A stretch of 64,000 bases of DNA, from the sequence record CP132210.1; one strand, 5' to 3'. Position numbers and translations under genes: made by a program. The stretch is from a plasmid. Shown in pieces: positions 4,207-18,657 of this stretch. The notes under the pieces were generated by a model. The model was not told where the DNA came from. It was given only the letters and a program-made list of their open reading frames with translations, and made no database searches. Every line of letters starts with the position of its first letter. Within the stretch, counting starts at the first letter, position 1.

Positions 4207-4407
4207 TGCGTCTTTGATCTTGCACCCGAAAAGGGCAGTTTGAGCGTTCCTGTTCATGCCGCTCTCGTGGAAAAATAAAAGTGAGGAGGGGATACCCTCC
4301 CACTTTCTCAGAGGCCTTCATTGAGGGTTGCTGAGAAAGTGAATTTTGTCCTCTCTGAGGGCGAAAACGTGCGATAGCTGGTCGCCAAAAACAAACAGCA
4401 ACCTATC
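4207..4407 (+). repeat. family B intergenic module 1 (hairpin plus conserved GTAGCTGG-N-CCAAAAACAAACAGCAA core)
   Basis: Core 4343-4401 is 59/59 identical to 17941-17999. Confidence 0.7.
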
Positions 4408-4467
4408 TTGGCCCATAGGGCGCACTGCGCCTGTTGGGCAACGTGCGTCCTCAAAAAGGAGATACGC

Positions 4468-5007
4468 ATGTCTATCCTTGAAAAGATGAAAGCAGAAATG
4501 CTTAATCTCTCTCAAAAGCTCAAGTTACCGGAGGTTTATGCCGGTGATGTAGAGCAAGATCTAACCCTGATTGAGCAGTTCAGTGGCTATCAAATGTTAT
4601 GGGTGCTCAGAACCTGTGGTTCGGCATTGATACCGTTAAAGGCCGGAGTTCACCCTGTTCATGTTACTCACTGGATCTGGGGTAATTCAGGGCAACAAAT
4701 CTTTGTGTTTCATGTCAATACGCAGCACGGAACCATAGAGAAAGTTGACTTCGAGGAAGCTGAACGTCTCATCATGCAGCAACCTTGCCATTTGAGCTCT
4801 TCAATGAAGCGCGAAGAGATAATCAGCTATGTTGATCGTGTTCTATCTAATGGCTGCAACCTTCGTATATGGGGTGTTTTTGACTCACCGAAACACTCTT
4901 GTTCGGTCGGGGACTGGTCACAATGGCAACAGTATTTCAGATCGTCAGGTAATCACCTGATGGCCGATTTTATTGGTAAAGCCATTCGATTCACGAACCC
5001 TCGATAA
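4468..5007 (+). CDS. hypothetical protein
   Basis: AAGGAG RBS then ATG at 4468. First gene after family B module 1. Confidence 0.55.
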   Translation: MSILEKMKAEMLNLSQKLKLPEVYAGDVEQDLTLIEQFSGYQMLWVLRTCGSALIPLKAGVHPVHVTHWIWGNSGQQIFVFHVNTQHGTIEKVDFEEAERLIMQQPCHLSSSMKREEIISYVDRVLSNGCNLRIWGVFDSPKHSCSVGDWSQWQQYFRSSGNHLMADFIGKAIRFTNPR

Positions 5008-5087
5008 ATCGCCGTTCAACCATTAACCCTTTGGGGCTCCGATAGCCCTGAGGGGCCGGGGCTCCGCAATCGCATTAAGGAGTCCCT

Positions 5088-5588
5088 ATGAAAAACCTAT
5101 CAGCTTTGGAAGCAGTTCTTGACTACGACAAACCTTCTCGGCGTTTTCTTGATGAGCTCAACGAAAACCAGATGAAGGACCTGTCCGGGGAAATCTTCGC
5201 CAAGCTCTACTGGAGCAAGCGGAATCCTCAGTGGTACGAGAAAGACACCAACAGACTGTTTGCACGACTTCGTTGGGTTCGGCGCATCATCAAGAAGCGC
5301 TTGAGTTCCGGCCAGGTTAAACCTGAACTGACTGAAAATGGTTCAGTGATGGATCGCTTCAACTTCCCTTGCGGTGACACTCTCGATTTCTTCCATCGGT
5401 ACTTGCAACATCCCAAATGGGCTGTTGTGTATCAAGAGTCGGGTTGTATTGCCTTTTGGAAAAATGAAGCAACGCTTGAGCTATGCACCTACTGCGAAGG
5501 TGATGTGGTCATGATGAAGGCACCTGATGAAACGGCCTTCTTTCGTGATTGCAATCGCCTGAGCTGGTGGTATGCAGATAACGCTTGA
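5088..5588 (+). CDS. hypothetical protein
   Basis: AAGGAG RBS, 166 aa. Confidence 0.55.
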   Translation: MKNLSALEAVLDYDKPSRRFLDELNENQMKDLSGEIFAKLYWSKRNPQWYEKDTNRLFARLRWVRRIIKKRLSSGQVKPELTENGSVMDRFNFPCGDTLDFFHRYLQHPKWAVVYQESGCIAFWKNEATLELCTYCEGDVVMMKAPDETAFFRDCNRLSWWYADNA

Positions 5589-6611: not shown

Positions 6612-6836
6612 ATGAACATACAACTTCAAGCCAACAACATTGTTCTGTTGGCGCAAATCGAAAACAAAGGCCTCACTGTTGAAACGCATTGTCGCAGTGG
6701 CTTTTGTGGCATGTGCCGGGTTCGTCTAATCGAAGGTCAGGTGGCCTACGAAGAGACCCCCATCGCACTTGTCAAAGAAGGGGAAGTGTTGGTTTGCTGC
6801 GCTAAAGCAAAAACCGATGTGACCTTGGAAATTTAA
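6612..6836 (+). CDS. YfaE-like 2Fe-2S ferredoxin
   Basis: 74 aa. Cys cluster CRSGFCGMCRV plus a distal Cys pair (VCC). AAGGAG RBS. Confidence 0.6.
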   Translation: MNIQLQANNIVLLAQIENKGLTVETHCRSGFCGMCRVRLIEGQVAYEETPIALVKEGEVLVCCAKAKTDVTLEI

Positions 6837-6897
6837 CCCATCCGGAGGAGCCTTTCCTGCGGGTGGGGCTCCTCTATCCATTACGAGGAGAAACACT

Positions 6898-7287
6898 ATG
6901 TCTATCAAAACCAAAGTCGAACAAATCGCATACGGCCATGCTACTGCTCAAGTGCTCAGTGAAATGGGTCCACAAGAGAATTGGTATAAGGCTTATGAGT
7001 ATTTGTCGGAGTGTGTAGAACTGGGAGACGACCCTGAGGATCTGGTCGTTTGGCAAAAGTTTGAGCACTGGGAATGGAAAGACATTCTGGAGCAAATCGA
7101 GAGCGAAGCTGAGTCTCTGCTTTCGACTATCAAGTTGGTTTTAGGCTTGGCCCACAAAGGCATCATTCAGTCAGCAATTGACTGCTCTCTCGATTCGGAC
7201 ATGACTCAGCTTGACCTGATTGGAATGGTCGAGCTCGGCAGTGAAATCGAAGAAAGGGAGTGTGCTGGAGGTGGCTATGCAGCTTAA
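6898..7287 (+). CDS. hypothetical acidic protein
   Basis: GAGGAG RBS, 129 aa. Confidence 0.5.
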   Translation: MSIKTKVEQIAYGHATAQVLSEMGPQENWYKAYEYLSECVELGDDPEDLVVWQKFEHWEWKDILEQIESEAESLLSTIKLVLGLAHKGIIQSAIDCSLDSDMTQLDLIGMVELGSEIEERECAGGGYAA

Positions 7288-7733: not shown

Positions 7734-8009
7734 ATGGCCGCTGTAGCGCATATAGCAGCAGATAACCTTGTACCGGCATGTGGAGGGGCAGAGAAGCCGT
7801 TTACCGTCAATGACAGGCAATGGCTTTACTGTTATCACCCGGCTAGTGGAAAGCACTGCTACTTAGACCTCGATAACGACCGTCCAGTTTGGCATCGAGG
7901 ATTCCATCCTGCTTTTCATCCTGAGCTTGAGTTCGTTGATGAAGCTGAATTGTTTCGGCCAGTCGAGCAAAAGCCTGACCATGAAGATCTGGAGGATTTT
8001 TATTTTTAA
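7734..8009 (+). CDS. hypothetical protein
   Basis: GAGGA RBS then ATG at 7734. Confidence 0.45.
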   Translation: MAAVAHIAADNLVPACGGAEKPFTVNDRQWLYCYHPASGKHCYLDLDNDRPVWHRGFHPAFHPELEFVDEAELFRPVEQKPDHEDLEDFYF

Positions 8010-8065
8010 CCCACGGGGCTGCTTTTCCTGATGGGAGACAGCCTCCATTCTCAAAGGAGAAGACC

Positions 8066-8257
8066 ATGACAGATCACAGTCACATGATTGTGTTCCCTGG
8101 GAGCAATGTCGAATCACTTGCTGAGGCTAACGCCATGTTGAGCGCAGTGTCGGAAGACGCACGTAAAGCCAGCAATATGGAAGACAAACGTGACCTTGAA
8201 TCGCTTCAAGGCTGGCTGGAAGAGAACATCAATTCTCAACTGGCAGGCGTGAAGTAA
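8066..8257 (+). CDS. hypothetical small protein
   Basis: AAAGGAGAAG RBS, 63 aa. Confidence 0.45.
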   Translation: MTDHSHMIVFPGSNVESLAEANAMLSAVSEDARKASNMEDKRDLESLQGWLEENINSQLAGVK

Positions 8258-8678: not shown

Positions 8679-8808
8679 CCCCCTGCTTTCCCAGCGACAT
8701 CGACTTTCACATGTGAAAGTTTTGTGCCCCTCGGAAAGCAAGATTTTGCTCTCTGACGAGAGTGAAAAGTGAGGTAGCTGGCCTCCCCAAACAAACAGTA
8801 TTCAACAT
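8664..8808 (+). repeat. family B intergenic module 2
   Basis: GGGGGTTAACCCCC hairpin at 8670-8683, then the TTTCACATGTGAAA palindrome, then the core ...GAGGTAGCTGGCCTCCCCAAACAAACAG. Confidence 0.65.
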
Positions 8809-11297: not shown

Positions 11298-11357
11298 TAA
11301 CACTCCGGGGCAATGCCGAAAGGCCTTTGCCCCGGCCTATCCGAAAGGGGAGTGATC

Positions 11358-11789: not shown

Positions 11790-11801
11790 ACCAATAAGCC
11801 G

Positions 11802-11839
11802 TTAACGGGCAATGTAAGCCCGGAGACGGCTTACATTGC
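11802..11839 (+). repeat. family A-like 5'-UTR hairpin (perfect 12-bp inverted repeat)
   Basis: GCAATGTAAGCC at 11809-11820 pairs with GGCTTACATTGC at 11828-11839. Confidence 0.6.
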
Positions 11840-11861
11840 TCTCTCGTAAGTGGAGAGTTAA

Positions 11862-12419: not shown

Positions 12420-12585
12420 CAATCTGAGTGCGCCGAGAAATCGGCGTACCGTTCCCTTGAGAAGGGTAATCGGCGCAGGGGGAAACCCCGCGCTTTCCCA
12501 AGTTTCTCGGATTCCCAGGATGCTTCGGAAAGTGCCTTAGGCGCTCAAGTGCGGTAGCTGGCTGCCAAAAACAAACAGCAAATTA
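12420..12585 (+). repeat. family B intergenic module 3
   Basis: Terminator-like CAGGGGGAAACCCCGCGCTTTCCC at 12475-12498. Core GCGGTAGCTGGCTGCCAAAAACAAACAGCAA at 12549-12581. Confidence 0.65.
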
Positions 12586-13120: not shown

Positions 13121-15574
13121 ATGCAACAAGCATTAAACTTTGACCTACCAGAACAACCAACCCCAGTGCTCTTGCGAGGGGATAAGTGGGACTCTGTTTG
13201 GTCAGAACTGACTGATAACGAGGATTTGAACTTCGTTGATGCCAGTAGAGGAACCAGCTTGTCATCGTTGATCACGTCATCGGTTGAAGCCATTCACACG
13301 GCCTTGAACGATGGGTGGACCATGATGGTCGGCTATTCCAGTGGTAAGGATTCTGAAACGGTTTTGCATCTGTTTCTGATGGCTCTTGTCCGGGCGGTTA
13401 GGAGTGGAGCAACCATCAGCCAACACCACTTCATCTTGCACACTGACACACTGATAGAAAGCCCAGAAGTAAGATGGCTGGCGGATCAGAAACTGGCCGA
13501 GTTGGAGCGTTTCATTGTGAAGGAAAACCTTCCTCTGACCATCGTTCTGGCAAAGCCGGGGATCACGCAGAGTTGGACGGGCCGAATCCTTACGGGGAGG
13601 GGGTTGCCTACATTTTCCAACTCTTCGGCCCGTCAGTGTAGCCAAGAACTCAAAATCACCTCAGCCAAAAGAGCGAAGGCGGCTTATATGCGAGAACTCC
13701 CCAAGGATGTTCGGCAGAAAGTGTGCCTCCTGTTGGGGAGCCGTGATGCTGAAAGCGCTATTCGTGCAGCCAACATTGCAAAGCAGCGAGGAAGCTCAAA
13801 TCGCGTCATTAAGACGAAAGATGGGGGGGAGCTGTATGTGGTGAAAAACTGGTTGGCGAGTGATGTCTGGGAGTTCTTGCTATCTGCTGGCATGGGCTCA
13901 CCATACCCCCTGCCAAGTTACCTAGAGAGCAATGTCACTACGGCAGAGCTCTACAAGGCAGCGACGGGGGAGTGCGTGTGGTCGGCAACAGAGAAAAAGG
14001 CCAGTGATGCGTGTGGTGCTCGCTTCGGTTGCTGGGCCTGCCAAGCTGTAGGGTTGGATAAGTCGATGGAGACATTGCTTGCCACAGACCCTGAAAGGCA
14101 TGGCTACATGTCTGGGCTGAACCGCATCCAGCGCTACCTGGCAAAACGCCGGTACGCTTGGGAAGATCGCCATCCCGTAGGTCGAACGATTTATGAGGGG
14201 GGTTACATCAAAATACAGCCGGACGTTTACAGTCCTGTTTTCCTTGAGCGATTGCTTCATGTCTGTTGCAGCATGGACTACATGGAGCAAAAAAGAGCTG
14301 ATGAGCTTGCTTACAAGCTGGCTACTGGGCAAGCCGAGGATAACGACTGGAACCGTCGAATGGCAGAGCCGCAATTCCGGATCATATCGGAAGAAGCTTT
14401 AGTCCATATCGACTTCATGTGGGCCTTCCATCATTTCAATGATAAGCCTTTCCATGCCCTGGAGATTTACCACAGGGTTTGGTCGATGGGTGATCTGGAT
14501 TTGCTGGAAGATGAGCCGCAGTGCGAAACCGTTCCTCAGTCACCAATTCCGAAACCATTGTGGTTGAGAGTTGGGCGCTGGGGCGATGGTTCGCTGTCTG
14601 ATGGCTTGGCCGACCCGTTAGCGGAAATGGCTTACTTTGACGGCGGGGATGACCCGTTGGCAGTGAAAGTTATCAATACCGCAGATGGAAAGAGAAGGGT
14701 GGTTTGTTTCGCAGAGGATGATGAGGTGAAGGTCGATCCCGACTCCGCTGCATTCATCATCTGGAATGAATACCCGCGACTTAGGGAGTCGGTACTAAAG
14801 GGAAATTATACGCCCGGTAGTGCTGCTCAGTTCTACCTTCGGTTCGGAGCCATCCAGCTTGCGAAAGGAAAAGGCGCTTTGTATCACCGCATGATGCAAA
14901 GAGGTCAAACCTACCACCAGATGGGCCTTACAGGGCTACAGACGATGGAAGGAATCCAACAGCGCAAGGACCTCAAAGTGCTTTGTGATGACAAGTACAA
15001 AGATCTGGTGAAGCGAAAAATCAAGGGAAGACTGGCTACGGTACGCTGGTGGATCAACTTGCACTTAACGTTCAAGTACCACCTGCACCACCGGACTCCG
15101 ACGGGGTTATTCGTCGAGAGGCAACTTGACCAGGAAGCAATGGAAGAGCAGAAACGGCACCAGGAGCGATGGTTTAACTACGTGACTGACGCGATGCTCT
15201 GTTACTCCAGCGCATTCTGTATGAGCGTCATGGAGGGGCGAGAGGGAAGCGGAAACGCCAACATCCGTCGTTACATGGCTGCGACCAGAAGAAAGGCTTA
15301 TACGGCCCTCTGTGAGCTCCTACGCCACACTAACGCCCTCTGGGCGACAGATGTGGCCTTGAGTGCTGTAGGGAAGTATGAGGAGATACAGGCAGCCCTA
15401 ACCGAAGGTTCCGCGCTGGCTACCTACCTCGACTGGATCAACCTACTATCAAAACGTCATCCAGCCTCTTTGAAGCGACATGTCAGAACGATGATCAAAG
15501 TGGTTCAACGACTACATCGCCGCGACGACACAATGTTGCAAAGAGGACAGCAAGGCTTGTCCTTGGCCGCATAA
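13121..15574 (+). CDS. PAPS reductase-family (PP-loop ATP pyrophosphatase fold) protein with large C-terminal extension; DndC/IbrA-like
   Basis: N-terminal PP-loop motif GYSSGKDSETVLHLFL. 817 aa. CAGGAGG RBS. Confidence 0.7.
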   Translation: MQQALNFDLPEQPTPVLLRGDKWDSVWSELTDNEDLNFVDASRGTSLSSLITSSVEAIHTALNDGWTMMVGYSSGKDSETVLHLFLMALVRAVRSGATISQHHFILHTDTLIESPEVRWLADQKLAELERFIVKENLPLTIVLAKPGITQSWTGRILTGRGLPTFSNSSARQCSQELKITSAKRAKAAYMRELPKDVRQKVCLLLGSRDAESAIRAANIAKQRGSSNRVIKTKDGGELYVVKNWLASDVWEFLLSAGMGSPYPLPSYLESNVTTAELYKAATGECVWSATEKKASDACGARFGCWACQAVGLDKSMETLLATDPERHGYMSGLNRIQRYLAKRRYAWEDRHPVGRTIYEGGYIKIQPDVYSPVFLERLLHVCCSMDYMEQKRADELAYKLATGQAEDNDWNRRMAEPQFRIISEEALVHIDFMWAFHHFNDKPFHALEIYHRVWSMGDLDLLEDEPQCETVPQSPIPKPLWLRVGRWGDGSLSDGLADPLAEMAYFDGGDDPLAVKVINTADGKRRVVCFAEDDEVKVDPDSAAFIIWNEYPRLRESVLKGNYTPGSAAQFYLRFGAIQLAKGKGALYHRMMQRGQTYHQMGLTGLQTMEGIQQRKDLKVLCDDKYKDLVKRKIKGRLATVRWWINLHLTFKYHLHHRTPTGLFVERQLDQEAMEEQKRHQERWFNYVTDAMLCYSSAFCMSVMEGREGSGNANIRRYMAATRRKAYTALCELLRHTNALWATDVALSAVGKYEEIQAALTEGSALATYLDWINLLSKRHPASLKRHVRTMIKVVQRLHRRDDTMLQRGQQGLSLAA

Positions 15575-15576
15575 AA

Positions 15577-15718
15577 GGCCCTCCTTCGGGAGGGCTTTTT
15601 CTTTTGCACCCCAAAAGGGCAATTACAGCGTTTTACCCTTTTAAGGTGGCTGTCATACTCTTTGCTCATTGTCAGCGCTTGCTGGCTATAACGGTAGCTG
15701 GCCCAAAACAGCAATAAC
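15577..15718 (+). repeat. family B intergenic module 4
   Basis: Terminator GGCCCTCCTTCGGGAGGGCTTTTT followed by core ACGGTAGCTGGCCCAAAACAGCAA at 15691-15714. Confidence 0.6.
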
Positions 15719-15775
15719 CTAACCCCTCGGGAGGCAACCCTCCTGGGTTCTCTCCCATAACCAAAGGAGAGAAGC

Positions 15776-15979
15776 ATGAGCCTAGACAAGTTAAGTCGGC
15801 TGGTGGACCAACAGCGAAAGACCCAGGATGAAATCAACAACGAAGTCATTCTGGCCGTCAAAGAGGTGTTGTCTACAAATTCCATCAGCTTGGCCCGTGA
15901 GCTTGTTGGGTGTGTCCCGCAAGATCATCCATTCCATCCGTTTTTGCTCGCCATAGCTAAGCAGCTTGACCCGAGATAA
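15776..15979 (+). CDS. hypothetical small protein
   Basis: AAAGGAGAGAAG RBS, 67 aa. First gene after family B module 4. Confidence 0.45.
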   Translation: MSLDKLSRLVDQQRKTQDEINNEVILAVKEVLSTNSISLARELVGCVPQDHPFHPFLLAIAKQLDPR

Positions 15980-15984
15980 CGAAG

Positions 15985-16029
15985 TAACCCAACCGGGTAC
16001 ACCAAGGCCCGGTCGGGTTTGGTGTACCT
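15985..16029 (+). repeat. family A 5'-UTR element with interleaved inverted repeats (A-B-A'-B')
   Basis: AACCCAACCGGG / TACACCAA / CCCGGTCGGGTT / TTGGTGTA, immediately 5' of the RBS of gene 16051. Confidence 0.6.
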
Positions 16030-16050
16030 CCAGCCAATTTAGGAGGCACT

Positions 16051-16656
16051 ATGTCTGATTCAAATTTCGGCTTTCTAGCTCTGGCCTTGCGCCAACGCCT
16101 GATCAAGCGCTGGTCGCTGATGCACTCTGTTCAACCAGAGTCTGTGTTGGAGCACAGCGCTGTTGTTACCTTGCTTTCCTACCTGGCTGGCAATATCGCC
16201 ATTCAGCAAGGGAAGTCGGTGGATCTGGCAATCATGCTGGCTCATGCGTCGTTGCATGATGCAGCCGAGGTTCTTTGTTCGGATGTTGTCACGCCGGTCA
16301 AGAAAGCAAATGCTGTTTTGCAGCGTGAGTTTGAACGACTGGAAAAGGCCGCAGAGGACAAACTTATCCAGACTCTTCCCGAAGAACTCCAGGATGCAGT
16401 TTCCAGAGCCTTTGCTCCCGGTGGCTATGAACAATCACTGGTTAAGGCCTGTGATACCTACTCCGCTTACATCAAGTGCAAACTTGAGGTGGCCGCAGGT
16501 AATGGCATTGAGTTCCAAGATGCTCTCAGCAAAATGGAACGTATTGTTGCTCAGGTGAAATTGGACTTCCCGGAAATCGACGCTCTGGACAAATGGTTTG
16601 GTGACGGACTGGGCCATTCAGTAGATAAATTGCTGGCCGGGGGTAACGATGACTAA
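16051..16656 (+). CDS. YfbR-like HD-domain 5'-deoxynucleotidase
   Basis: Collinear with E. coli YfbR: RWSLM..ESVLEHSAVV..LAHASLHDAAEVL..GD(V)VTPVK. TTAGGAGG RBS. Confidence 0.7.
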   Translation: MSDSNFGFLALALRQRLIKRWSLMHSVQPESVLEHSAVVTLLSYLAGNIAIQQGKSVDLAIMLAHASLHDAAEVLCSDVVTPVKKANAVLQREFERLEKAAEDKLIQTLPEELQDAVSRAFAPGGYEQSLVKACDTYSAYIKCKLEVAAGNGIEFQDALSKMERIVAQVKLDFPEIDALDKWFGDGLGHSVDKLLAGGNDD

Positions 16657-16921
16657 TCCAATCGCTGGCGACATCAAGATTAAGAACTTTGGCCGTGACC
16701 GGAAATTTCGTTCGGTTGATGAGCTTCAAGGCACTTTGTCTGAACAGTACAAAGGTCAGCATGTCAGTGTCGTTTACCCTACAAAGCCTCACGGATTACT
16801 CCGTACCGTCTTTGTCAGTGTTGATGATGCCGGTGGCATAAATGAGACTTACGGAAAGCAGTCTCCAGTCGATTTTAATGCCATCAAAGATGACCTGTTT
16901 GTACCAAGTGTACTGAATTAA
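16649..16921 (+). CDS. hypothetical protein
   Basis: ATG overlaps the stop of the upstream gene (coupled). 90 aa. Confidence 0.45.
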   Translation: MTNPIAGDIKIKNFGRDRKFRSVDELQGTLSEQYKGQHVSVVYPTKPHGLLRTVFVSVDDAGGINETYGKQSPVDFNAIKDDLFVPSVLN

Positions 16922-17000
16922 GCCGCAAGGCTTCTTAACCCCACGGGGGACATCTGTCCCTGAGGGGGGGGTGTCTCCCTCTGAAACTAAGGAGATACCA

Positions 17001-17861
17001 ATGATTAAGCAGCATTTTCAAAACGAACTGGTCAAATGCGGATACCCTGATGACCTGACCATTGAGTACCGTCTTGGGTACTGTCAGGGTGATGGAGTGG
17101 CATTCTACGGATGTTTGGGTGTTGATAATGCTCAGGCGTTGATGAAGCGCTTGTTAAGCACCACAAAGGGGCAAGTAGATGCTGTCAGCAGAGTGAAAAA
17201 CCTGATAGCACAAAAAGACATTGACAATATGTTTCTTGTCCTTCGTGAGTATGCTGAGCTCCAGTTCTGCGAACTGGACATCAACAGAAACAGCTACGGC
17301 CATCATTACAGTCACTGGAACACCATGCGTATTGATAGCAACGTAGACTTCACTGGGATCTTTCCTGATGATGACACCATGCTTGGAACAGGCATCGAAG
17401 GGATTGACCAAGCGATGTTAGAGCGTTGGCAAGGCATCTGGGAGCGTTTCGTGTTGGAACTGTCGGGTGATGTTAAACAGCTTTCCAAGAAGCTCGAATC
17501 CGACGGTTATGCGTTGATAGAAGCCTCGCCACACGAAGAGAAAGTGGTTTGGGAACGGACTACTCAAAATTACTTGGTGCGAGTGACAGAACTCCCTGAA
17601 CGGGATTTCGACATGGACCACTGGGATGACGACATCAGAGACCAAACGATTCGTTCTATCCTGGAGGGAAAAGAGCGAGTGCTTGGCCTACGTGTTGAGG
17701 TGCTCTCTCGTGAAAACGAGATTGTTCTGGGTGAAGAGAGTCTGCACGGTTTGACCGTTGCCAGTGATGACAAGAGCTACGCTGGCTACAGACGAGAACT
17801 CCTCCGGGGCGCTATCCAGCAAACCAGAGATTTTTTCTCTCGCCACCTCAAAGCGGCATAA
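17001..17861 (+). CDS. hypothetical protein
   Basis: TAAGGAGATACCAATG, 286 aa. Confidence 0.55.
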   Translation: MIKQHFQNELVKCGYPDDLTIEYRLGYCQGDGVAFYGCLGVDNAQALMKRLLSTTKGQVDAVSRVKNLIAQKDIDNMFLVLREYAELQFCELDINRNSYGHHYSHWNTMRIDSNVDFTGIFPDDDTMLGTGIEGIDQAMLERWQGIWERFVLELSGDVKQLSKKLESDGYALIEASPHEEKVVWERTTQNYLVRVTELPERDFDMDHWDDDIRDQTIRSILEGKERVLGLRVEVLSRENEIVLGEESLHGLTVASDDKSYAGYRRELLRGAIQQTRDFFSRHLKAA

Positions 17862-17865
17862 CAAA

Positions 17866-18000
17866 GCAGGGGGAAACCCCTGCTTTACTCCCCAAGTCTC
17901 CTTACTCATGGTGAAGCCATCAGTAAGCAGATTTTGTCCTCTCTGAGGGCGAAAACGTGCGATAGCTGGTCGCCAAAAACAAACAGCAAATTAACGTTAA
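17866..18000 (+). repeat. family B intergenic module 5
   Basis: Terminator-like AGCAGGGGGAAACCCCTGCTTT, then a 59-bp core identical to module 1. Confidence 0.7.
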
Positions 18001-18093
18001 AAATCTCGGCTTTGGCCGTGATCTTTCAATAACCCATGCGGGTACACCTCCCCGCACGGGCTAGGTGTACCCATTAACTTTGGAGTACACCTC

Positions 18094-18480
18094 ATGAACC
18101 AAGTAGCTAAATTGGACCTCGCCCAAATCCGTCAACAAGCCATCAATGATGGACTGCTGGTGGACCAATCCTCCATCGGCACACAAGCTGGTTTCCTGAC
18201 CAATGTGGCAGTGACCCCAGCCATTGTCGATGGAGTATTTGGTGCGGATGGTAAGCACTCGGCAGAAGACTTCCTTCTCATGTTTTTGCAGCTTTGTGTT
18301 GCCCAAACAAAGGTCGCTTTTACCGACAACAAGAACTGGGGAAAGATTCGCCTCTATTACCCCATGCCCACTGTAAATGGCTTTTTCAAACCCACTGAGG
18401 TTGTGATTAAGTCAGACCCTGTAACCGCAGATGTCACAATCATGATGGCCTCAGAAGAGGGCACCCATTTGTGTTTGTGA
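18094..18480 (+). CDS. hypothetical protein
   Basis: TTTGGAG RBS. First gene after family B module 5. Confidence 0.5.
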   Translation: MNQVAKLDLAQIRQQAINDGLLVDQSSIGTQAGFLTNVAVTPAIVDGVFGADGKHSAEDFLLMFLQLCVAQTKVAFTDNKNWGKIRLYYPMPTVNGFFKPTEVVIKSDPVTADVTIMMASEEGTHLCL

Positions 18481-18657
18481 TGTTCACAAAATTCGCCTCC
18501 GTCTCGGGGGCGATCTTTTTAAACCCCTCGCCGGGGAGTTCTCCCCGGCTGGGGAGCCTCCTTGGCACATCCTCCCGGTGTCGGGGTTTCCTTAAAACCC
18601 TGGCGACGGGGGTTTAAGGAAGCCTCGATGCTGGGGTTCACGCTAAGGAGAAAACCT

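Follow-up and report, generated by a model that had tools for sequence, protein, structure and literature searches.

The question raised by this locus is what two consecutive leaders, each built of inverted repeats that overlap one another, do to the genes behind them. They lie on a plasmid (record CP132210.1), in a 64,000-nucleotide (nt) stretch that was analyzed as a whole and is called the window here. The window is the backbone of an IncA conjugative resistance plasmid: its positions 1-36000 correspond to positions 64001-100000 of CP132325.1, and the region 15500-17900 shows 100% identity to many IncA plasmids and about 90% to IncC. Both leaders are intercistronic and on the + strand. Leader 1 (15980-16050) lies between a 67-aa open reading frame (ORF) and an HD/YfbR-type 5'-deoxynucleotidase gene that starts at 16051, and leader 2 (16922-17000) between a 90-aa ORF and the NgrC gene, which starts at 17001. 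Our reading, to which we give a probability of roughly 0.6, is that both are copies of a single cis-acting mRNA leader element of about 60-75 nt, which ends at the start codon and leaves the downstream gene translationally silent by default.

Read 5' to 3', the element comprises a G-poor flank, an unpaired AA, a 10-bp hairpin (H1), a strand called B', a loop of about 10 nt, GGAG followed by about 5 nt, and ATG. H1 has the form CCC-N4-GGG, a loop of 5-14 nt, and CCC-N4-GGG again. B' is the strand complementary to the Shine-Dalgarno sequence (SD), that is, the anti-SD strand, and its 3' end reads CyCC. Strand B, which consists of the H1 loop together with the GGG that precedes it in the 5' arm, resembles the SD arm. 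Since the two are near-direct repeats in some copies, such as the one at 18031-18096 (B, GGGTACACCTC; SD arm, GGAGTACACCTC), B can be regarded as an SD mimic, a decoy for the anti-SD strand. In the proposed OFF state H1 would be formed and B' would be paired with the SD and its flank, and often with the start codon as well (helix H2); in the ON state B' would be paired with B instead, so that the SD would be released. The B/B' helix excludes both H2 and the inner part of H1. The element is an SD / anti-SD / anti-anti-SD relay, and its anatomy is that of a cis-acting riboregulator. In leader 1 its parts are the following:

15986-16053, + strand: the element of the HD/YfbR gene, from AACCC to ATG (covariance-model match 15982-16060, 25.8 bits, E 1.9e-6)
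15986-15997 (AACCCAACCGGG) and 16008-16019 (CCCGGTCGGGTT): inverted repeat I2, 12 nt with one mismatch, 92% complementary
15996-16005 (GGTACACCAA) and 16019-16028 (TTGGTGTACC): inverted repeat I3, 10 nt, 100% complementary
15988-15997, + strand: 5' arm of H1, CCCAACCGGG, behind the conserved AA at 15986-15987; columns 7-16 of the structural alignment
16008-16017, + strand: 3' arm of H1, CCCGGTCGGG, nine of its ten positions pairing with 15988-15997
15995-16005, + strand: B, the anti-anti-SD strand, GGGTACACCAA, forming a perfect 10 bp with 16019-16028 (duplex -18.0 kcal/mol)
16019-16031, + strand: B', the anti-SD strand, TTGGTGTACCTCC, whose partner is either B or the SD/start region
16042-16053, + strand: 3' arm of H2, with the SD GGAGG at 16042-16046, a spacer and the ATG at 16051-16053

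In leader 2 they are:

16937-17003, + strand: the element of the NgrC gene, top covariance-model match of the window (16933-17010, 34.9 bits, E 2e-9)
16939-16948, + strand: 5' arm of H1, CCCCACGGGG, nine of its ten positions pairing with 16958-16967
16958-16967, + strand: 3' arm of H1, CCCTGAGGGG, whose GGGG is the first half of a G8 run
16945-16954, + strand: strand B, GGGGGACATC, pairing with 16970-16979 (duplex -18.3 kcal/mol)
16970-16979, + strand: B', the anti-SD strand, GGTGTCTCCC, of which 16970-16978 pair with 16991-16999 (GGAGATACC) in the minimum-energy fold
16991-17003, + strand: SD and start, with GGAG at 16991-16994, a spacer and the ATG at 17001-17003

A first-pass annotation of this DNA had described the arms of leader 1 in the order A-B-A'-B', and this is the order found: the inverted repeats I2 and I3 share bases, and because the arms interleave and share bases both full helices cannot coexist. 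The B helix, which that annotation took to be 8 bp long, is present but has 10 bp. In leader 2 it had offered GGGACA (16947-16952) two alternative partners, TGTCCC (16955-16960) and TGTCTCCC (16972-16979), and both structures were recovered by computation; the first of them is the inward extension of H1 as GAC/GTC. The G8 run (16964-16971) does adjoin TGTCTCCC as it had pointed out, but the run is incidental and not conserved, IncC having GGGGATGG at this place. It arises where the GGGG of the H1 3' arm (arm 3) meets the GGGG of B', and it could be prone to slippage that changes the spacer length. The mutually exclusive pairings in both 5' leaders are real and conserved across copies. The pairings, the location in leaders and the riboregulator anatomy proposed at first sight were right, but the sequestration of the SD, the pairing of B' with it and the existence of a family of about 24 copies had been missed.

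In the minimum-energy folds of both focal leaders A/A' forms together with B'/SD, B' continuing into CCUCC/CUCC and pairing with the SD, the spacer and the initial base of the ATG. In leader 1, positions 16042-16051 are paired with 16020-16024 and 16027-16031, and opening the SD is predicted to cost 7.6 kcal/mol at 37 C; the range for the two leaders at this temperature is 7.4-7.6 kcal/mol. Enforcing B/B' in leader 2 gives -33.6 kcal/mol, compared with a minimum of -40.0. Both fold better than dinucleotide shuffles (leader 1, z = -3.1, with 0 of 200 shuffles as good; leader 2, z = -3.8, with 1 of 200). The combination of H1 with an SD-sequestering hairpin is the minimum-energy fold of nearly all leaders between 47 and 20723 of the window, and with the SD constrained to be open most of them, both focal leaders included, fold best into a long B/B' hairpin. 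The predicted ground state is OFF, by a margin of about 4-13 kcal/mol, and the predicted SD-opening cost varies between copies from about 3 to 14 kcal/mol.

The family was delimited from sequence and then from structure. The sequence TAACCCNNNNGGG occurs eight times in the window, always on the + strand, when 0.34 occurrences are expected, and TAACCC occurs 42 times for an expectation of 15.6. By inspection, about twenty + strand intergenic regions within 1-27 kb carry the same module. A covariance model (R1), built on H1 and H2 with a seed of AACCC copies only, gave 20 + strand and three weak - strand matches in the window, all within 1-26.7 kb, and six further matches just upstream of the window on the same plasmid. 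Five of these precede a hypothetical gene, a CbbQ-type ATPase gene, bet, exo and a DUF3150 gene, and the sixth lies in the gap ahead of a 61-aa ORF. R1 found no match in the 37-kb resistance region with genuine class 1 integron cassettes (32-64 kb), in the traI-traN operons or in the remaining 92 kb of the plasmid. All matches on the plasmid fall at record positions 58.6-90.7 kb, which makes about 24 copies located only in a co-oriented block of about 32 kb that runs from traN to hipBA.

The copies share a structure more than a sequence. Their mean column identity is about 53%, and what is conserved among them is AACCC, the G-C clamps and GGAG only, the remaining positions being free to vary. 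MAFFT alignments of the copies misplaced the arms by 1-2 columns, and N-padded structural alignments were used instead. H1 is an ungapped 10-mer in 42 copies, where the outer and the inner three pairs are C-G/G-C clamps and every Watson-Crick and wobble type is seen at the central four pairs; at these central positions 3.33 of 4 are paired in cognate arms and 1.62 of 4 in non-cognate ones. In the structural alignments of paralogues the paired fraction is 89% for H1, 81% for H2 and 87% for B/B', and changes on both sides are seen in 6 of 10, 5 of 9 and 10 of 11 pairs, respectively; with the partner columns slid by 1-3 the B/B' figure falls to 40-55%. Cognate B/B' duplexes are more stable than non-cognate ones both in the window (-17.6 vs -12.1 kcal/mol) and in plasmid pVPS91 (-15.6 vs -10.2 kcal/mol; permutation p <= 2e-5 each), while the control with upstream-versus-SD duplexes was flat. 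When 72 natural sequences were realigned by the model, 86% of the pairs were formed and 14 of 19 had changed on both sides. Nine orthologous HD leaders aligned by plain MAFFT, from sequence only, gave an RNAalifold consensus helix that is B/B', with compensatory changes from U-A to C-G. In more than 40 paralogues and in the HD-leader orthologues, all three helices show covariation.

The structure is read as RNA of the + strand, because in 35 of 42 copies the + strand gives a stabler fold than the complementary strand does (p = 4e-6). H1 contains 38 G-U pairs and 14 A-C mismatches. Among the 72 model matches, 67 are on the + strand and 69 end at a start codon. AA and CCC are near-invariant, in 66-70 of the 72 matches, a figure that for AA is inflated by the AACCC-only seed of R1, copies in the SXT-type integrative and conjugative element (ICE) often starting with CACCC. 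The four bases 5' of AACCC are almost free of G.

Besides the two focal leaders, the copies in the window, all on the + strand, are these:

1-56: leader of the DUF3150 gene, 14.6 bits, its 5' end cut by the window edge (full copy L015:49781-49857, 23.1 bits)
1340-1418: copy of the VWA gene, 17.9 bits
3250-3329: variant copy of the DUF3085 gene, 16.4 bits
4400-4470: copy starting with GGCCC instead of AACCC, behind an AcaCD-type box; found by eye, not reported by R1
5021-5097: copy, 18.7 bits
5596-5671: copy of the DNA adenine methylase gene, 15.0 bits
6541-6621: weak copy of yfaE, 9.8 bits; the upstream TAG stop codon abuts CCC
6831-6907: copy, 18.7 bits; the upstream stop codon is the TAA of TAACCC
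8004-8075: copy, 14.7 bits
8264-8334: copy, 22.7 bits
8805-8878: weak copy behind a promoter box, 9.6 bits
9223-9301: copy, 32.1 bits
9602-9681: copy of the dcm gene, 23.0 bits
12584-12658: copy behind a promoter box, 21.0 bits
13059-13130: copy of a PAPS-reductase-like gene, 24.0 bits
15717-15785: copy of the 67-aa ORF, behind a terminator and a promoter box, 17.8 bits
18027-18103: copy behind a promoter box, 25.4 bits
20653-20732: copy, 24.0 bits
26606-26693: copy ahead of a helix-turn-helix (HTH) gene that precedes hipA, last in the block, 27.4 bits

The copy at 4400-4470 has an opening cost of 12.3 kcal/mol and a B/B' duplex of -16.8 kcal/mol. The counts given by R1 are lower bounds because the bet leaders at L015:47503-47591 and L099:2400-2506 carry an extra small hairpin in the H2 loop that lowers the R1 score; the Alcanivorax-type bet leader was missed by R1 despite its full anatomy. 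Two variant leaders in the window were missed as well. The one at 11298-11357 has its anti-SD strand (ACACTCC) 5' of the hairpin and not 3', and the one at 11790-11861 has a B/B' of 12 bp (GCAATGTAAGCC/GGCTTACATTGC). An atypical leader of a toprim/primase-like gene (18481-18657) has two AAACCC(C)-type starts, a long near-perfect hairpin ahead of a weakly paired SD, and, over the 86 nt of the leader, a minimum-energy fold of -42.7 kcal/mol; it may be a degenerate or duplicated element. The last copy of the block holds two tandem TAACCC motifs inside a long AT-rich palindrome (26571-26693), and the 364-nt spacer before the HTH gene (26320-26683) is unusually rich in G+C, with a C9 run.

Five long intergenic regions of the window share a box, TAGCTGG-N3-CCAAAAAC, behind a GTCC...GGGCGAAAA motif, at 4330-4392, 8775-8792, 12555-12572, about 15693-15712 and 17920-17980, and each box is then followed by a leader element. 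Written in full the box reads TAGCTGG-N3-CC(A)AAAAC(AAACAGCAA), and two of the five regions have an identical TTTTGTCCTCTCTGAGGGCGAAAACGTGCGA ahead of it. These boxes are probably AcaCD-dependent class II promoters; bet/exo and many genes whose function is unknown have been placed under AcaCD control (PMC4207636). The same box precedes the HD leader in Alcanivorax-type lineages (L024, L025, L028).

The family is also present outside IncA. It was found in the syntenic block of pVPS91 from Vibrio parahaemolyticus, where the gene order is conserved with IncA and the HD protein is 76% identical, in p380 of V. coralliilyticus (HD protein 43% identical) and in metagenomic lineages whose HD proteins show 80, 64, 59 and 54% identity. 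An SXT/R391-type ICE, whose locus was reached through P0106, has at least four copies. The HD-protein scan of the genome collection yielded eight loci; the metagenome scan was more productive, and its 20 related plasmid-type loci gave 83 + strand matches; the bet contigs L098 and L099 belong to the Alcanivorax-type lineage. The bet leader scores 31.1 bits in IncA and 18.4 bits in the SXT/R391-type ICE, and the leader of the vcrx089-like (CbbQ) gene of IncA scores 20.0 bits. The SXT-type bet leader has the full anatomy, UAACCC, H1, ACUCCC and GGAGU. Control sequence, about 1.3 Mb overall, gave almost no matches: one weak match in 60 chromosomal yfbR loci (about 540 kb), two marginal ones in 76 phage RecT loci and, among 80 viral-collection loci with a RecT/Bet homologue, real matches only in two plasmid-type loci.

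Two members of the family correspond to structures already in the literature. A review (PMC4542580), citing Garriss et al. 2013, calls the leader upstream of SXT bet a "strong translational attenuator" and reports that it cuts translation and not the transcript level. By location, one family member thus has experimental support as a translational silencer. Roy et al. 2020 (PMC7498323) predicted a structure that sequesters the ribosome-binding site (RBS) at vcrx089 of IncC. Both lie in the same SetCD/AcaCD-driven block after traN as the leaders analyzed here, in the same position before the start codon and with the same sequestration of the SD, and the HD and NgrC leaders are, under one covariance model, paralogues of the bet and vcrx089-like leaders. 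With the two leaders, new members join a translational-attenuator type known so far from these single cases, which the literature reached treats as single local structures. The family as such appears to be undescribed: no account of about 24 copies, of AACCC-H1 or of B/B' was met in that literature, in which Garriss et al. 2013 is represented through the review and may hold more. No Rfam 15 family exceeded its threshold in 14500-18500 or in 1-30000 at permissive E-values, where chance matches and a terminator were the only hits.

What would open the element is the next question. OFF is favoured by thermodynamics and by the order of synthesis, arm 3 being made before B', so opening would need an input. 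The flip would follow if something occupied or unwound the outer H1 5' arm (AACCC plus N4) and left the GGG of B unpaired; the freed B would displace the SD from B' and a ribosome would load. The simplest agents would be a ribosome that completes the cistron upstream, which could act so in some copies, or a 30S subunit that stands by on the G-poor flank, possibly together with protein S1. When AACCC, the outer three pairs of H1, is kept single-stranded in the calculation, the mean predicted cost of opening the SD drops from 7.2 to 3.5 kcal/mol, which makes the SD roughly 400-fold more open; if the blocked stretch also takes in the GGG of B, the cost returns to 6.2 kcal/mol. Holding the outer 5' arm with B free should therefore flip the element. 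A standby 30S on the G-poor flank, or a factor that recognises AACCC-H1, would fit in this model both the intercistronic copies and those in primary 5' untranslated regions (UTRs). The repetition of the element points to a block-wide control of translation.

Several points weigh against a default-silent relay with this trigger. Between the upstream stop codon and CCC there are 0 to 31 nt, depending on the copy, and a terminating ribosome would not be consistently at the energetic sweet spot. Five copies of the window follow promoter boxes and belong to primary 5' UTRs, and the orthologous HD leader of the Alcanivorax-type lineages is directly 3' of such a box; translation upstream therefore cannot serve as the trigger in every copy. 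Leaders of the same plasmid that lack the element are also fairly structured, with a mean opening cost of 5.4 kcal/mol against 8.5 for those with it (p = 1.7e-4). The energies come from nearest-neighbour prediction, which takes no account of pseudoknots, proteins or folding during transcription, and the padded alignments from which pairs were counted were fitted to the structures, which leaves the permutation test and RNAalifold unaffected. Equating the published SXT bet attenuator with the element rests on location and on the wording of the review. For the two focal leaders the reading is a modelled one, built on prediction and comparison.

The same element might instead be flipped by a dedicated trans-acting RNA-binding protein or small RNA that reads AACCC/H1, the roughly 24 cistrons then being one regulon, perhaps licensed in the recipient. 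We give this limited credit. It would account for the near-invariance of AA and CCC when AA is unpaired and the rest is variable, although the inflated conservation of AA and the CACCC starts mentioned above take away part of this argument; for the fixed geometry of H1, with G-C clamps at both ends of a 10-bp helix; and for the primary-5'-UTR copies, which are closed as tightly as the intercistronic ones with no ribosome coming from upstream. The preference for OFF means that the energy of opening must be supplied, and a block of AACCC is predicted to be worth about 3.7 kcal/mol toward ON. Moreover, it is in the recipient cell that the hde genes of the block counter restriction and CRISPR (PMC7498323). 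Yet Pfam showed no RNA-binding domain in 20 hypothetical proteins of the block, few proteins are common to the three plasmids compared, and no candidate small RNA was found, GGGTTA occurring 13 times on the + strand for about 8 expected per strand. To the idea that AACCC-H1 is the common handle of a post-transcriptional regulon, in which one trigger would switch on about 24 cistrons and gate establishment and evasion of host defence, we likewise give limited credit. That the element is a constitutive damper or insulator, in which H2 lowers translation, H1 and H2 shield the mRNA from RNases and B/B' sets a basal level of open SD, seems rather unlikely to us. Such a role needs neither a conserved AACCC nor a covarying third helix, and the latter is better conserved than H2; three mutually constrained helices kept in more than 100 copies, in lineages whose HD proteins are 43% identical, would be costly for something static. 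The wide spread of opening costs (3.5-13.4 kcal/mol) is nevertheless what gene-specific tuning would give, the position of the upstream stop codon is unconstrained, and for the bet copy the literature reached reports attenuation and no inducer. A static pseudoknot, with outer H1 and B/B' formed together as a translational enhancer or barrier like that of the IncI-alpha repZ leader, is improbable. The first-pass annotation had raised it, and the A-B-A'-B' order has indeed H-type topology, and loop pairing beside the RBS is known from IncI-alpha/IncB; but with full stems the connecting loops (L1 0 nt; L3 0-2 nt, 1 nt in leader 1) are too short to cross helices of 7-11 bp, and the GGG of B is shared with H1. 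The full-length form is sterically unlikely, and for truncated forms the prediction speaks neither way, ViennaRNA scoring no pseudoknots.

The classes named at first, a transcription attenuator, an RNA thermometer or a ligand-binding riboswitch, are very improbable. Alternative leader hairpins are typical of all three, but here the element stands ahead of about 24 unrelated genes. No terminator-like hairpin with a T-run was found at 15980-16050 or 16922-17000 in a scan of 15400-18200 for terminators and promoters, which showed neither in the leaders; what comes after H1 is TTTGG in leader 1 and a G-rich stretch in leader 2. Between 25 and 42 C the share of open SD is predicted to rise about 500-fold, but the cost of opening is 8.2-8.9 kcal/mol at 30 C, 7.4-7.6 at 37 C and still 6.5-6.7 at 42 C, where the probability of an open SD is about 2-3e-5. 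A ligand switch is opposed by the variable loops and helix centres, with no conserved loop or bulge pocket and no Rfam 15 family over threshold. A pseudoknot for frameshifting or readthrough, 6 nt after the stop codon of the 67-aa ORF, was also considered and rejected: a slippery site is missing, another stop codon ends the zero frame at 16040-16042, and the TAA at 15985-15987 closes the HD frame. A function at the DNA level, whether as an attC-like site, a repetitive extragenic palindrome (REP) or miniature inverted-repeat transposable element (MITE), or the operator of a DNA-binding protein, is scarcely credible, even if the layout invites it, with many short co-oriented genes separated by one structured repeat of about 70 bp and a tyrosine recombinase gene (25315-26319) in the block. 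G-U pairs outnumber A-C mismatches and the + strand folds better, the SD and ATG are part of the structure, the copies share structure and little sequence on one strand only, and the genuine class 1 integron cassettes at 32-64 kb gave no model match; gene order is kept between IncA and pVPS91, and the indel by which IncA and IncC differ near leader 2 has its junction in coding sequence and not at an element boundary. An attC site is recognised by RYYYAAC/GTTRRRY core sites, bottom-strand folding and a cassette array beside intI. Here the motif is AACCC...GGG with AAC on the outer side, and the folded strand is the sense strand. REPs or their bacterial interspersed mosaic elements (BIMEs) and MITEs were set aside on the identity of about 53%, with 67 of 72 matches on one strand and 69 of 72 at a start codon.

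The default-silent relay has partial counterparts among known systems. In the replication leaders of IncI-alpha and IncB plasmids an upstream hairpin loop pairs beside a sequestered RBS, and Asano and Mizobuchi reportedly described for repY-repZ of IncI-alpha/IncB/IncK/IncL-M a pseudoknot coupled to a leader peptide. The likeness lies in an RBS locked in a stem of a plasmid mRNA, an upstream hairpin loop complementary to the locking strand, and the need of upstream translation for refolding. However, repY-repZ has one copy per plasmid, an antisense RNA, a stop codon in the RBS stem and a loop contact of a few bp, whereas the present element has about 24 copies, a stop codon 0-31 nt before H1 or none, and a competing helix of 8-13 bp; no antisense promoter or RNA family was detected (Rfam, 1-30000; promoter scan, 15400-18200). 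With ermC/cat and other three- and four-segment attenuators it shares nested pairings in which an upstream segment frees the SD once a ribosome occupies another, but it is without a dedicated leader peptide or an antibiotic-stalling signal and stands also in primary 5' UTRs with no ORF. Standby sites, as in tisB mRNA and the MS2 coat gene, let a structured RBS be reached through an unstructured upstream platform, and Com of phage Mu activates mom by binding a hairpin just 5' of an inhibitory stem. As with mom, the genes controlled here include DNA-modification and anti-restriction functions; unlike it, no Com-like candidate was seen by Pfam in 20 block proteins. In hok/sok (tac/fbi, ucb/dcb) competing metastable helices likewise keep the SD of a plasmid mRNA closed until a defined event, but that system uses long-range 5'-3' pairing, 3' processing, an antisense RNA and a single toxin mRNA, whereas the element is a compact local module repeated ahead of many unrelated genes.

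Translational attenuation is suggested by these data to be a property of the whole block and not a peculiarity of bet, and one recognisable RNA module with a built-in release helix appears to carry it. The genes of the block include hde, which aids incoming DNA against restriction and CRISPR in the recipient (PMC7498323). If the regulon reading is true, a single trigger, be it a dedicated RNA-binding factor or 30S loading under particular conditions, would open genes for anti-restriction, methylase, Bet/Exo, primase-like and nucleotide-metabolism functions, and this switch would act in IncA/IncC plasmids, SXT/R391 ICEs and their marine relatives, for example in the first minutes in a new recipient, as a second regulatory layer beneath the transcriptional activators AcaCD/SetCD. 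The family could aid start-codon annotation in such elements and is a candidate for a new Rfam entry; as a compact natural SD / anti-SD / anti-anti-SD relay it might also be reusable in synthetic operons.

Some minor features of the region were recorded as well. A strong bidirectional intrinsic terminator, AAAAGGCCCTCC-TTCG-GGAGGGCTTTTTCTTTT, lies at 15575-15607, 3' of the PAPS-reductase-like gene; the terminator at 15573-15607 is the sole near-match to Rfam (ctRNA_p42d, 29.9 bits, below threshold). Positions 32000-64000 are a resistance island with TnAs1, mph(A), blaSHV-12, qnrS1, IS26/IS6100 and two class 1 integrons, one with dfrA14 and the other with blaVIM-1-aac(6')-Ib-aph(3')-XV-aadA1-catB2. 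The HD gene of pVPS91 (L012:20001-20840) is annotated as 279 aa, compared with 201 aa in IncA, and overlaps the next ORF; it may be a fusion or have a mis-called stop codon. Just before leader 2, at 16920-16933, AAGCC-GCAA-GGCTT forms a 5-bp hairpin with a GNRA tetraloop that overlaps the 90-aa ORF at its stop codon. An identical hairpin sequence in IncC terminates a different, 185-aa gene (L002:5263-5276), which suggests a deletion: two genes seem to have been lost from IncA, with the junction within coding sequence.

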